From Escherichia phage HX01: a DNA stretch of 64,000 nucleotides. This document shows positions 3,816 through 6,554 of this stretch, one piece after another; position 1 is the stretch's first letter; each line of letters begins with the position of its first letter. The position numbers and the translations under genes are program-made. The DNA is taken from sequence record NC_018855.1. One strand, written 5' to 3'. The notes under the pieces are model-generated. The model had not been told where the DNA came from. It was given only the letters and a program-made list of their open reading frames with translations, and searched no databases.

Positions 3816-4007
3816 GCTCTAAAATGTGGATAGGAATATGGTTGCTTAGTATCCCTATGATTTGTATAGTATTTTCAATTGTATTGAGGTACTTATGAAA
3901 AATGCACTTATTATTGTACTAAGAACAATTTGTGATACGGGTTTTTACATCGCATGTTCGTTCACTGGAACATGGTTGGCTTTAACATATTTTAATGTAA
4001 TTTAATT

Positions 4008-4046
4008 GTTTACAACAAGGTAGGATTATGGTATAGTAGTCCTACT
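4008..4046 (+). promoter_or_regulatory. early promoter embedded in stem-loop (arms GTAGGA/TCCTAC)
   Basis: GTTTAC at 4008; -10-containing core TTATGGTATAGTAG flanked by perfect 6-bp inverted repeat. Confidence 0.6.
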
Positions 4047-4065
4047 GAAACATGAGGAACACAAA

Positions 4066-4266
4066 ATGGCTAAGCTTTTTAAAGATGTTGAAATTGGTGA
4101 AAAATTTGTTCTGAATAATGGTCAGCAGCTTATTCGTGTAGCTTCTATCGCCGGACAAACTCATAACTGTATCGCCCCAACGTGTTGGACTCGATTCTTT
4201 ATTGAAGATGACACTGAATGTTTAACTGTTGAAGAGCTTTTTGAACGTTCTGATATAGCCGAATAA
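4066..4266 (+). CDS. hypothetical early protein (66 aa)
   Basis: ORF with GAGGAA RBS preceded by early promoter with inverted-repeat arms. Confidence 0.5.
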   Translation: MAKLFKDVEIGEKFVLNNGQQLIRVASIAGQTHNCIAPTCWTRFFIEDDTECLTVEELFERSDIAE

Positions 4267-4268
4267 AA

Positions 4269-4305
4269 TTGTACAAACTCTTGAGAGCAGAGTATAATGC
4301 TCTCA
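4269..4305 (+). promoter_or_regulatory. promoter with -10 TATAAT inside hairpin GAGAGCA...TGCTCTC
   Basis: TTGTAC -35-like at 4269; TATAAT at 4293..4298 spanning the loop and first base of the right arm of a 7-bp inverted repeat. Confidence 0.6.
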
Positions 4306-4342
4306 TGGATTACAAAAACATTAATCAATTGAGGAAATTAGC

Positions 4343-4789
4343 ATGTCCAAATATTTAACTCGTAAAGACCTTCTGGCAGTTGGCGGTGAAGTTGTTGCAG
4401 TAGTTCGTAATGGTGAATACGGTTCTGAAGTTTCTAAAGAGTTTCGTTCTCGTGAAGGTTTTTACTTCTTTGTTAAAGGTTCATCTGACTGGCGTCAAGT
4501 AGCAGCACGATTCTTTGTAGGACGTCAACGTTCTAAACAAGGGTTGGATGCAATTCTTTCTCACATTCGTCAAGGCCGTTCGCAACTAGCCCGTACTATG
4601 GGCACTAACAATATTGAATATGATGTAATCTTTGTTGCAGCTAAGAACATGAAACCACTGACTACTGGTTATGGTAAAGGACAATTGGCTCTGGCATTCA
4701 CTCGCAATCATACATCAGAATATCAAACACTCACTGAAATGAACCGTCTTCTGGCCGATAATTTCAAATTCATTCTGCAGAGTTACTAA
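4343..4789 (+). CDS. ndd: nucleoid disruption protein Ndd
   Basis: 148 aa (T4 Ndd about 151 aa); position between rIIB/denB and gene 52; GAGGAA RBS. Confidence 0.75.
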
Positions 4790-4796
4790 TTTATAC

Positions 4797-4826
4797 AGGC
4801 CTAGCTTAATAGGCCTTTAATTTATT
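4797..4826 (+). terminator. putative terminator after ndd
   Basis: AGGCCT..8-nt loop..AGGCCT followed by T-rich tract. Confidence 0.45.
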
Positions 4827-4841
4827 TTTGAGGTAATTAAA

Positions 4842-4991
4842 ATGGTAGCATGGATTATTGCATTGCTGTGTTGGTCGTTTTTATTCGTTAACACTTTAGT
4901 TACAGGCGAAACAACAGTATTTCAACAGGCTGTGTCACAAGGTACCTTAGCGGTCTTAGCTCTTCTTAACGTATTAAAAGGCGAGCAATGA
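4842..4991 (+). CDS. small hydrophobic membrane protein (49 aa), not in ORF track
   Basis: ATG at 4842 after AGGTAATTAA; product MVAWIIALLCWSFLFVNTLV... is a predicted single TM helix; stop overlaps next start (ATGA). Confidence 0.45.
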   Translation: MVAWIIALLCWSFLFVNTLVTGETTVFQQAVSQGTLAVLALLNVLKGEQ

Positions 4992-5128
4992 TTAAGAAAA
5001 TCTTAGCAGGAGCCTTCGGGCTCTTGTTGTTGCTTACGGTTCTGTACTACGGTGTGATGTTTGGGCTAATCCAAGTAGTGCTTTTCATTTCAGATGTTAT
5101 AATGGTTATTCGTTCATTAATATGGTGA
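4988..5128 (+). CDS. small hydrophobic membrane protein (46 aa), not in ORF track; position of T4 ac
   Basis: ATG overlapping previous stop; product MIKKILAGAFGLLLLLTVLYYGVMFGL... hydrophobic; ends 4 nt before gene 52. Confidence 0.45.
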   Translation: MIKKILAGAFGLLLLLTVLYYGVMFGLIQVVLFISDVIMVIRSLIW

Positions 5129-5132
5129 AAAT

Positions 5133-6458
5133 ATGCAATTGAATTCTCGTAATCTAAAAAGTATTATTGATAACGAAGCCTTAGCATATGCGATGTACAC
5201 CGTTGAAAACCGTGCAATCCCAAACATGATTGATGGATTTAAGCCGGTTCAACGTTTTGTGGTTCATCGTGCGTTAGATTTGGCTCGTGGTAATAAAGAA
5301 AAATTTCATAAACTTGCGTCAATTGCAGGAGGTGTTGCAGATTTAGGTTATCATCATGGCGAATCTTCTGCACAAGATGCAGGTGCATTGATGGCTAACA
5401 CATGGAACAACAACTATCCGTTGTTAGATGGCCAAGGCAACTTTGGTTCTCGAACAGTCCAAAAAGCTGCAGCATCTCGTTATATTTTTGCTCGTGTAAG
5501 TAAAAATTTCTATAACGTATATAAAGATACTGAATATGCTCCAGCTCATGAAGATAAAGAACACATTCCGCCAAAATTCTATCTTCCTATTATTCCGACA
5601 GTTCTTTTGAATGGCGTCTCTGGTATTGCAACCGGTTACGCAACAAATATTCTGCCTCATAGTTTTAAATCAGTCAAAAAGGCTGTATTACAAGCTCTTC
5701 AAGGTAAAAATGTCACTAAGCCAAAAGTTGAATTCCCGGAATTCCGTGGTGAAGTACATGAAGTTGATGGGCGTTATGAGATTCACGGAACATATAAGTT
5801 CACATCTCGCACTCAAATGCAGATAACTGAAATCCCATATAAATTCGACCGTGAAACGTATGTGAGTAAGGTTCTTGACCCGTTGGAAGACAAAGGTCTA
5901 ATCTCATGGGAAGATGATTGTGGTGAACACGGCTTTGGGTTTAAGGTGAAGTTCCGTAAAGAGTACTCGCTTCCTGATGATGAAGAGCTACGTCATGAAA
6001 AAATCATGAAAGATTTTAGTCTCATCGAACGTCGTTCACAAAACATCACAGTGATTAATGAAAAGGGTAAATTAGCAGTCTACGATAACGTAGTGGACTT
6101 AATCAAAGATTTTGTTGAAGTCCGTAAGACTTACGTTCAGAAACGTATTGACAACAAAATCCTTGAATCTGAAAAAGCGTTTAAACTTGCTTTTGCTAAG
6201 GCACACTTCATCAAAAAAGTTATTACAGGTGAAATTGTGATTCAGGGCAAGACTCGTAAAGCTTTGACTGAAGAGCTAGCACAAATCGAAATGTATAAAG
6301 AACATGTCGATAAACTGGTAGGTCTTAACATCTTCCATATCACTTCCGACGAAGCACGTAAACTAGCAGAAGAAGCTAAAGCTAAGAAAGAAGAAAATGA
6401 GTATTGGAAGTCTACCGATGTTGTGACAGAGTACACTAAAGACTTGGAGGCACTTTGA
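5133..6458 (+). CDS. 52: DNA topoisomerase II medium subunit gp52
   Basis: 441 aa (T4 gp52 about 442 aa); GyrA/ParC-like N-terminal region; synteny next to motA. Confidence 0.95.
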   Translation: MQLNSRNLKSIIDNEALAYAMYTVENRAIPNMIDGFKPVQRFVVHRALDLARGNKEKFHKLASIAGGVADLGYHHGESSAQDAGALMANTWNNNYPLLDGQGNFGSRTVQKAAASRYIFARVSKNFYNVYKDTEYAPAHEDKEHIPPKFYLPIIPTVLLNGVSGIATGYATNILPHSFKSVKKAVLQALQGKNVTKPKVEFPEFRGEVHEVDGRYEIHGTYKFTSRTQMQITEIPYKFDRETYVSKVLDPLEDKGLISWEDDCGEHGFGFKVKFRKEYSLPDDEELRHEKIMKDFSLIERRSQNITVINEKGKLAVYDNVVDLIKDFVEVRKTYVQKRIDNKILESEKAFKLAFAKAHFIKKVITGEIVIQGKTRKALTEELAQIEMYKEHVDKLVGLNIFHITSDEARKLAEEAKAKKEENEYWKSTDVVTEYTKDLEAL

Positions 6459-6534
6459 GTGCCCTAGCCTTAGGATTTCTCGGTGCAATAGCTGCACTAG
6501 TGATTTGGCTGTATTGGTTGGACAAACATGATTA

Positions 6535-6554
6535 GGGAGCTTCGGCTCCCTTTT
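6535..6554 (+). terminator. rho-independent terminator after gene 52
   Basis: GGGAGC-TTCG-GCTCCC followed by TTTTG. Confidence 0.75.

Follow-up and report, generated by a model that had tools for sequence, protein, structure and literature searches.

Five very small open reading frames around ndd and gene 52 of Escherichia phage HX01 and their counterparts in T4

The closest described systems are the very small genes of bacteriophage T4 around ndd and gene 52, namely ndd.6 (NP_049886, 28 aa), ndd.5 (NP_049885, 32 aa), ac (NP_049877, 51 aa; PHROG 2501), 52.1 (NP_049876, 46 aa), and motA.1 (NP_049874, 49 aa; PHROG 3487). Their transcripts are classed as early, and the proteins were undetected in the T4 time-course omics study (PMC9697503, Table S2). 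This non-detection is expected because the peptides are tiny and hydrophobic, and it yields no support for expression either. When 52.1, ac, stp, ndd, ndd.1 through ndd.6, and denB are deleted together, the T4 yield is halved and the post-infection stimulation of phospholipid synthesis is abolished (PMC6071114). Of these five T4 genes, ac is the only one with a named phenotype, which is related to acridine (PMC6071114). The family of Ndd.6 (PHROG 8851) carries the label "outer membrane protein", a prediction only, taken from the T4 annotation; no experiment on the outer-membrane localization of Ndd.6 was found. A literature search on T4 motA.1 returned nothing usable.

We analyzed a 64-kb window, the whole stretch of 64,000 nt taken from the HX01 record NC_018855.1, which belongs to an RB69-like T-even phage of the genus Mosigvirus; approximately 150 Mosigvirus genomes are 95-99% identical to its small-ORF region. 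The gene order was denB - ORF270c - (small ORFs) - ndd.1 - ndd - ac - 52.1 - 52 - motA, the same as in the annotations of RB69, ATK47, AlbertHofmann, and T4. Five tiny hydrophobic ORFs had been proposed here by a first-pass annotation (Table 1; ORFs are referred to below by their start positions). All five were present, open, and intact in each Mosigvirus sequence covering them (17 aligned, among which L004 is without the 3812 and 3895 ORFs), and the sole indel across them was an in-frame 3-nt deletion in the 3895 ORF of L052, of which 35-aa variants exist. That the ORF track missed the five is due solely to its 60-aa cutoff, and all five are annotated somewhere in public records. Promoter-like sites of the early type were located upstream of the small-ORF units, and the one at 3497 heads the unit of the 87-aa ORF, the 3812 ORF, and the 3895 ORF. 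In the sequences covering the 87-aa ORF, its variable sites were distributed over the three codon positions as 9:3:24. A near-copy of the promoter-like site was also observed at 4009-4037, and 54-nt repeats at 3479-3532 and 3991-4044 share 81% identity.

Table 1. Positions of the small ORFs and neighboring features in the window
Position	Strand	Feature	Details
3497..3525	+	Promoter-like site, early sigma-70 type	TTTACA, 17 nt, TATAGT, TG extension; 10/12 matches
3552..3815	+	87-aa ORF, RB69ORF270c homologue	TGA overlaps the start ATG of the 3812 ORF
3812..3898	+	Ndd.6 homologue, 28 aa	One transmembrane segment; MSSKMWIGIWLLSIPMICIVFSIVLRYL; phrog_8851
3895..4005	+	36-aa hydrophobic ORF	ATGA overlap on the ndd.6 homologue; GAGG 5 nt upstream; position of T4 ndd.5
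4797..4816	+	Terminator-like hairpin	3' of ndd, just 5' of ac; annotated as terminator in ATK47, MM02, PhAPEC2
4842..4991	+	ac homologue, acridine resistance protein family, 49 aa	phrog_2501; GAGG 8 nt upstream
4988..5128	+	gp52.1 homologue (DUF7396), 46 aa	Start overlaps ac as ATGA; 4 nt between its stop and gene 52
5133..6458	+	Gene 52, topoisomerase II medium subunit	gp52 88% identical in amino acids to T4 gp52
6455..6535	+	26-aa hydrophobic ORF	(M/L)SALALGFLGAIAALVIWLYWLDKHD; TTG overlaps gene 52 TGA as TTGA; GGAGG at 6446-6450
6535..6554	+	Intrinsic terminator	GGGAGC-TTCG-GCTCCC, then TTTT; shares its first base with the end of the 26-aa ORF's TAG stop

The hydrophobicity of the five ORFs was ranked by the best 19-residue Kyte-Doolittle window against the 672 six-frame ORFs of 20-59 aa in the window. 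The 3812 and 4988 ORFs ranked third and fifth, followed by the 6455 ORF (12th, p~0.018) and the 4842 ORF (17th, p~0.025). The 3895 ORF was unremarkable (p~0.15) and only moderately hydrophobic. Among the 60 small ORFs outside long ORFs, the 3812, 4988, and 4842 ORFs ranked first, second, and fourth.

The 3812 ORF matched the phrog_8851 profile over positions 1-28 of 28 (E 1.9e-11) and was 54% identical in amino acids to T4 Ndd.6 (shuffle z 10.5). As in T4 ndd.6, which has the same length and also lies between denB and ndd, the encoded peptide contains the motif MSS-x-W...(S/C)IP-x-IC, the start overlaps the upstream stop, and an ATGA overlap leads into a further small hydrophobic ORF. The upstream partner differs, being the 87-aa ORF in HX01 and a 106-nt gap after denB in T4. 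Homologues of Ndd.6 were found in at least four other T4-like lineages, with blastp matches at 15+ loci from other lineages, and the 3812 ORF shows the features of the family: a single hydrophobic segment, 28-29 aa, a place in the denB-ndd interval, and a start that overlaps the upstream stop. The cross-genus dN/dS of Ndd.6 was mostly 0.17-0.4, which indicates purifying selection. The first-pass annotation had the right frame and began it too late, at 3824 (24 aa). The ATG at 3812 (MSSKMWIG...) overlaps the TGA of the 87-aa ORF as ATGA, and 3824 is an internal Met because the N-terminal MSS(K) is kept in T4 Ndd.6 and in other genera. The exact 28-aa sequence is that of YP_010247046.1 of phage HX01. 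There is very little doubt that the 3812 ORF is translated into a functional peptide.

The 36-aa ORF that follows had been delimited correctly, including its ATGA overlap. It matched the phrog_18561 profile (E 2.8e-29), a family seen only in Mosigvirus and annotated in many Mosigvirus records. The 3895 ORF and T4 ndd.5 occupy the same position, directly after ndd.6 and coupled to it by an ATGA overlap; in both, GAGG lies within the end of ndd.6, and both products are hydrophobic and begin with MK. The two differ in length (36 versus 32 aa) and in PHROG, and no sequence similarity of the 3895 ORF to T4 Ndd.5 was detected when local alignment was compared with shuffles (z 1.16, p 0.145). Homology to either T4 Ndd.5 or Ndd.2 was ruled out by shuffle tests. 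Translation of the 3895 ORF into a functional peptide is very likely.

The pair at 4842..5128 had been compared with the small genes of the T4 ndd-52 interval, and both family matches and position identify its members as ac and 52.1, with the lengths, ATGA overlap, and distance to gene 52 as originally described. The 4842 ORF matched the phrog_2501 profile (E 2.9e-22), lies between ndd and 52.1, and is annotated as Ac in RB69, ATK47, and AlbertHofmann. It was 34% identical to T4 Ac (shuffle z 7.8), and the core (S/T)VF-x-QA-x-(S/A)QG was found in both. In T4, stp is located between ndd and ac, whereas HX01 is without stp; the ac/52.1 junction is an ATGA overlap in the window and an 8-nt overlap in T4. 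We consider it nearly certain that the 4842 ORF yields a functional peptide.

The 4988 ORF matched PF24129 over positions 1-46 of 46 with 79.9 bits (cutoff 27), and it also matched phrog_3595. T4 gp52.1 is equal in length and 72% identical, and its gene likewise ends 4 nt before gene 52. The C-terminal halves are nearly invariant (YYGV-x-FGLIQVVLFISDVIM), the difference being confined to the N-terminal hydrophobic stretch. Adjoining gene 52 on its upstream side, gp52.1 was under purifying selection, with a cross-genus dN/dS of 0.07-0.2 and saturated synonymous sites. It is hardly to be doubted that this ORF, too, is translated into a functional peptide. Conservation in related phages had been proposed as a check on the small ORFs; no frameshifts were found in the aligned Mosigvirus sequences, and the cross-genus dN/dS of both Ndd.6 and gp52.1 was below 1. 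The proposal that the region carries small membrane-peptide genes of the T-even type was thus borne out by profile matches of the 3812, 4842, and 4988 ORFs to known families and by the annotated Mosigvirus family of the 3895 ORF.

The fifth ORF had been described as a TTG-initiated 27-aa peptide at 6455..6538 that ends at a terminator. The hydrophobic ORF and its contact with the terminator were recovered, whereas the end and the length were corrected to 6535, stop included, and to 26 aa, the number of letters in the peptide as it had been written. The terminator (-11.6 kcal/mol for the 34 nt preceding the T-run) is annotated as such in ATK47, MM02, and PhAPEC2. The ORF was intact in all 17 aligned Mosigvirus sequences, in 3 further phage records, and in 2 metagenome contigs, and its exact peptide sequence is the RefSeq CDS YP_010247053.1 of phage HX01. 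Its anatomy is that of T4 motA.1 and of the 34-aa ORF of JS98/Dhakavirus (PHROG 16377): each of the three begins in an NTGA overlap with the gene 52 stop, has Ser (AGY) as its second codon, codes for a strongly hydrophobic peptide, and has its own stop within 0-5 nt of the terminator of the gene 52 unit. The 26-aa ORF is shorter than the other two, with one hydrophobic segment and an acidic DKHD tail, and usually starts with TTG, whereas T4 motA.1 and the JS98/Dhakavirus ORF start with ATG. Many T4-like lineages retain a hydrophobic mini-ORF that overlaps the gene 52 stop (8 of the 15 gp52 clades, with a best 19-residue Kyte-Doolittle window of 1.8-3.1), and these mini-ORFs form several unrelated sequence families. 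In phages without one, the terminator stands 8 nt after the gene 52 stop.

Sequence comparisons were negative for the 26-aa ORF. No Pfam or PHROG profile matched it (best PHROG E 0.073, an unrelated family; none to phrog_3487), tblastn of the peptide against all phage records gave nothing useful beyond one partial match (E = 8), a poor yield probably due to the low-complexity filter, and profile, tblastn, and shuffle comparisons revealed no relatives outside Mosigvirus. Homology to T4 MotA.1 (z -0.59) or to the JS98 34-aa peptide (z 0.4) was contradicted by shuffle tests, and nucleotide alignment 3' of gene 52 showed nothing convincing shared beyond the gene 52 end and the terminator. The upstream GGAGG is uninformative as a sign of translation because the conserved C-terminal codons of gp52 impose it; phages without the ORF have GGAGG too. 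Nevertheless, the 26-aa ORF is probably a real gene and a rarely annotated positional counterpart of T4 motA.1. The peptide first suggested here is plausible and less certain than the other four.

We also considered that the 26-aa ORF is no gene, being a chance frame or a decaying motA.1-type remnant between gene 52 and the terminator, with the other four ORFs real. Within Mosigvirus (17 sequences), 17.9% of its sites were variable compared with 19-23% in intergenic stretches, and the variable sites were distributed over codon positions as 6:3:5, without the third-position excess observed in gene 52 (12:2:111). The within-genus codon-position and synonymous/non-synonymous counts fail to separate the ORF from neutral sequence, but gp52.1, an unquestioned gene, was almost as relaxed in the same test (6:2:7). 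Across 22 full-length sequences, no stop or frameshift was found in the 26-aa ORF, and the replacements were all conservative (L/I, A/V, G/S, K/N, and H/R). A metagenome scan of the junction between gene 52 and this ORF gave three Mosigvirus contigs, all with TTG and two with the intact ORF; they did not improve the selection test because three are too few. The start was TTG in ~136 of 148 Mosigvirus records (~92%) and ATG in 12; the ATG was found in the LF82 series and in CAU_ECP01, which are independent of each other. A TTG start would fit a non-gene, but TTG in a TTGA overlap is also the start of the conserved Ndd.6 family at three of five JS98-like loci. The lack of homologues beyond Mosigvirus also fits that reading, as does the fact that the ORF is unannotated in every phage genome record inspected, some of which instead have a 29-aa ORF on the opposite strand or a plus-strand ORF that overlaps it. 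From composition, the chance of a 26-codon open frame running from an NTGA overlap was estimated at ~0.1-0.2. However, the ORF belongs to the top 2% of small ORFs in hydrophobicity and exactly occupies the interval between the gene 52 stop and the terminator, which lies 8 nt after that stop in lineages without such an ORF. Several other lineages show this arrangement with an ATG start. On balance, we regard the non-gene reading as rather unlikely. Because the within-genus variation looks neutral, translation of the 26-aa ORF into a functional peptide is rated only as fairly probable.

The best explanation, which we consider likely, is that the five ORFs are genuine early genes, that they encode very small peptides of the inner membrane, and that translational coupling links them into two strings. 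In the first string, an early promoter at 3497 would serve the 87-aa ORF, the Ndd.6 homologue, and the 36-aa ORF, the last two joined on by ATGA overlaps. In the second, ac would be followed by 52.1 through the ATGA overlap, by gene 52 after 4 nt, and through the TTGA overlap by the 26-aa ORF, whose stop touches the terminator; in this way, the flanking mini-ORFs are coupled to the large gene 52. Ribosomes ending an upstream gene may re-initiate at the overlapping start, which for the 26-aa ORF is usually the weak TTG. The peptides would enter the host inner membrane soon after infection and may act as non-essential modifiers of envelope properties. Such a role is suggested by the acridine phenotype of T4 ac and the effects of the T4 multi-gene deletions, and it is extrapolated from the latter rather than from single-gene tests. 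An earlier hint at lysis or exclusion modulators received no support from any analysis run.

In many T4-like lineages, gene 52 is flanked by gp52.1 4 nt upstream and by a hydrophobic mini-ORF at its stop whose position is conserved and whose sequence is replaceable. It is conceivable, though improbable, that the flanking peptides, made in cis with gp52, anchor at the inner membrane, or organize there, the topoisomerase and the replication machinery of the phage. If so, the TTG re-initiation start in Mosigvirus would set a low ratio of peptide to gp52. Membrane association of the T4 topoisomerase subunits belongs to the older literature, and our search on it found nothing usable.

Alternatively, the mini-ORF after gene 52 might act through its translation, with the ribosome covering the 5' arm of the hairpin, reducing termination, and tuning read-through towards motA. 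The 0-5 nt between mini-ORF stop and terminator stem in three genera (Mosigvirus, JS98-like phages, and T4) could be taken to point this way, and the peptides at this position are unrelated between lineages, as expected if the peptide sequence is unimportant. However, these unrelated peptides are all strongly hydrophobic, which is needless for a pure ribosome-occupancy device. Read-through is not obviously needed because separate early-promoter-like sites for motA and for the 71-aa ORF lie directly downstream (6577-6604 and 6899-6926), and in some lineages the mini-ORF does not end at a detectable terminator (gaps of 74-77 nt in L011 and L013; none found in L022 and L027). We hold this possibility to be very improbable and retain that of genes for membrane peptides. 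Finally, that the five ORFs all arose by chance in AT-rich intergenic DNA and are annotated elsewhere only as propagated gene-caller output has practically no likelihood: T-rich sequence does yield small hydrophobic ORFs by chance, several of them out of frame inside long genes of the window, but the Ndd.6, Ac, and gp52.1 homologues persist across genera with saturated synonymous sites and dN/dS well below 1, gp52.1 has a curated Pfam family, start-stop overlaps and ORF lengths are conserved, and cross-genus conservation refutes the chance reading for the 3812, 4842, and 4988 ORFs.

The locus is largely ordinary, and its contents are the small, long-annotated early genes for membrane peptides that T4-like phages usually carry: four ORFs belong to known families or correspond to annotated genes, and the fifth probably is the counterpart of motA.1. 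It has little discovery value, and its practical value lies in annotation. At 87 and 81 nt, respectively, the ndd.6 homologue and the 26-aa ORF are shorter than the minimum of roughly 90 nt used by common gene callers. Both are absent from the RB69 reference annotation, and the ndd.6 homologue is absent from the inspected phage records except AlbertHofmann. The antisense 29-aa ORF or overlapping plus-strand ORF annotated in several records at the locus of the 26-aa ORF looks like a spurious call. Two modest observations, the recurring hydrophobic mini-ORF at the gene 52 stop and the use of TTG in NTGA overlaps of conserved mini-genes, could help to direct work on small phage proteins by ribosome profiling or tagging.

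At positions 3500-6700, the window was 95-99% identical to about 150 Mosigvirus genomes (RB69-like T-even phages), and vB_EcoM-ZQ3 was the closest match (99.3% identity). The gene order in annotated relatives (ATK47, AlbertHofmann, RB69, JS09, Mizar, and others) was denB - RB69ORF270c - ndd.1 - ndd - ac - 52.1 - 52 - (71-aa ORF) - motA, and the layout of T4, which carries ndd.6 to ndd.1, stp, ac, 52.1, 52, and motA.1, was the same. By exact-sequence look-up, two peptide variants specific to the window occurred in Escherichia phage HX01 alone, so the window probably comes from HX01 or a near-twin. 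Two strings of coupled reading frames were found in this region. The first-pass annotation had listed five tiny hydrophobic ORFs here, and all five were present, two of them with altered boundaries. The first starts at ATG 3812, which overlaps the TGA stop of an upstream 87-aa ORF, and encodes 28 aa; the start originally chosen, 3824, is an internal methionine, as relatives share the N-terminal MSSK. The last ends at 6535 and encodes 26 aa, not at 6538 with 27 aa. Among the 672 small six-frame ORFs of the window, those at 3812, 4988, 6455, and 4842 stood out in hydrophobicity (ranks 3, 5, 12, and 17, respectively), whereas the ORF at 3895 was unremarkable. Each of the five is annotated as a CDS in one or more public records, and the finding is thus already known.

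Mini-ORFs and flanking signals between 3497 and 6899 (window coordinates)
Feature	Position	Match
Ndd.6 homologue	3812..3898	phrog_8851, E 1.9e-11, full length
36-aa ORF	3895..4005	phrog_18561, E 2.8e-29
Ac	4842..4991	phrog_2501, E 2.9e-22; T4 Ac, shuffle z 7.8
gp52.1	4988..5128	Pfam DUF7396, 79.9 bits (cutoff 27)
26-aa ORF	6455..6535	
Early sigma-70-type promoter-like sites	3497, 4009, 4270, 6577, 6899	
Terminator hairpin	4797-4816	
Terminator hairpin, stem after gene 52	6535-6550	

Judged by sequence comparison, three of the ORFs are assigned to known families, namely Ndd.6, Ac, and DUF7396. The product of the 3812 ORF was 54% identical to T4 Ndd.6 (shuffle z 10.5), shared the motif MSS-x-W...(S/C)IP-x-IC with homologues from at least four other lineages, and gave dN/dS values against homologues of mostly 0.17-0.4. 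The pair at 4842..5128, which had been likened to small genes of the T4 ndd-52 interval, corresponds by family match to ac and 52.1. From Mosigvirus to T4 and more distant phages, the C-terminal half of gp52.1 hardly varied; for the peptide as a whole, cross-genus dN/dS was 0.07-0.2 at saturated synonymous sites. In the window, ac ends in ...GEQ with its TGA within the ATGA overlap (4989-4991); in most relatives it stops at a TAA one codon sooner (48 aa), and in UGJNEcP1 (locus L048) the C-terminus differs through a 1-nt length difference. Given these variable ends, the last Ac residues seem unconstrained. The start codon of ndd.6 also varied: among five JS98-like loci, it was TTG within a TTGA stop overlap in three (L008, L010, and L041) and ATG in their close relatives L009 and L031. 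This alternation suggests that termination-reinitiation renders the choice of start codon close to neutral in these mini-genes.

The 36-aa ORF is annotated in many Mosigvirus genomes, starts in an ATGA overlap with GAGG 5 nt upstream, and tolerates a deletion of exactly 3 nt. It occupies the position equivalent to that of T4 ndd.5, but no similarity of its peptide to T4 Ndd.5 was detectable in the shuffle test (z 1.2); on this comparison, it is classed as a positional counterpart of ndd.5 and not as a family member. Direct repeats with early promoters (3479-3532 and 3991-4044; 54 nt, 81% identical, 512 nt apart) bracket the 87-aa ORF, the ndd.6 homologue, and the 36-aa ORF, and this module may be another shufflable cassette.

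The 26-aa ORF, present in RefSeq for HX01 as YP_010247053.1 (D299_gp206), has the anatomy of T4 motA.1. Its TTG start overlaps the TGA stop of gene 52 as TTGA, codon 2 is AGY (Ser), a feature shared with T4, JS98-like phages, and the group of locus L011, and a single 20-residue hydrophobic segment is followed by DKHD. The last base of its TAG stop is shared with the terminator stem; in T4 and the JS98-like phages, the corresponding stop lies 5 nt and 0 nt before the stem, respectively, whereas in RB49-like phages, which lack the mini-ORF, 8 nt separate the gene 52 stop from the terminator. No match was found in the Pfam and PHROG profiles, and in the shuffle test neither T4 MotA.1 nor the 34-aa peptide of JS98-like phages was significantly similar; the ORF is a positional counterpart of motA.1 only. 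Of 148 Mosigvirus records, 12 start the ORF with ATG (the LF82 isolates, from Iowa, and the Korean CAU_ECP01) and the others with TTG; a TTG start within a TTGA overlap is nothing unusual here, because the well-conserved Ndd.6 family uses the same start in three of the five JS98-like loci. An ORF of 23-77 aa that is strongly hydrophobic and overlaps the gene 52 stop occurred in 8 of 15 gp52 clades (37 gene 52 loci), or in 9 of 16 lineages when T4, which the 88% clade threshold lumps with Mosigvirus, is counted separately. These ORFs start at ATGA or at an ATG 7 nt upstream and belong to several unrelated sequence families. The MotA.1 family proper (T4 versus the L011/L013 group) was clearly under purifying selection (L011 versus L013, pN 0.14 and pS 0.81).

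From these features, we consider the 26-aa ORF to be probably a translated, functional mini-gene. The alternative, an open frame due to chance or to gene decay, appears less likely, though 17.9% of the ORF's sites vary within Mosigvirus, similar to intergenic DNA (19-23%), the gp52 C-terminus itself dictates the GGAGG upstream, and variable sites by codon position were 6:3:5, compared with 12:2:111 in gene 52. The within-genus codon-position test is weak, because gp52.1 itself gives 6:2:7; all replacements in the 26-aa ORF were conservative, and neither stops nor frameshifts occurred in any sequence read. It is very improbable that translation of this ORF, rather than its peptide, modulates the adjoining terminator, since hydrophobicity is conserved among otherwise unrelated peptides and promoters lie directly downstream. 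Cross-genus conservation refutes, for three of the ORFs, the view that all five are chance frames. The mildly interesting remainder is a recurrent, under-annotated hydrophobic mini-ORF that is joined to the stop codon of gene 52, is replaceable in sequence, and starts with TTG in Mosigvirus.

In T4, ndd.5, ndd.6, ac, 52.1, and motA.1 are transcribed early, and their proteins were undetected by shotgun proteomics (PMC9697503, Table S2). The T4 sa-delta-9 deletion, which spans 52.1, ac, stp, ndd, ndd.1-ndd.6, and denB, is viable with a yield of about 50%, and infection with it no longer stimulates phospholipid synthesis; several products of ndd.1-ndd.6 are thought to be membrane-located from their hydrophobic composition (PMC6071114). 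The peptides of the five ORFs would most likely be produced within minutes of infection through coupled translation, enter the inner membrane, and, without being essential, modify the properties of the envelope. For a specific function in the timing of lysis or in superinfection exclusion, the analyses run here gave no support.

Beyond gene 52, direct repeats at 6567-6652 and 6889-6972 (about 84-91% identical), each with an early promoter, a ribosome-binding site, and the first codons ATGTCTAAA, flank the 71-aa ORF (6644..6859). RB69, PTE-Eco05, 172859UKE1, and NHEP36 lack this entire unit (about 320 nt), and in them motA directly follows the terminator. The unit resembles the promoter-plus-stem-loop (PeSL) cassettes to which gene shuffling in T4-type phages has been ascribed (PMC2839356, PMC4122927). 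Some Mosigvirus records annotate an antisense 29-aa ORF at the 26-aa locus (6436..6525, - strand) or a 42-54-aa ORF through the terminator and promoter (6528-6656, + strand); neither shows gene features, and both resemble artefacts produced by gene callers whose minimum length is near 90 nt. Among close relatives, the terminator loop (6541-6544) is TTCG or its reverse complement CGAA on an unchanged stem, a difference that is a loop inversion and not a point mutation.
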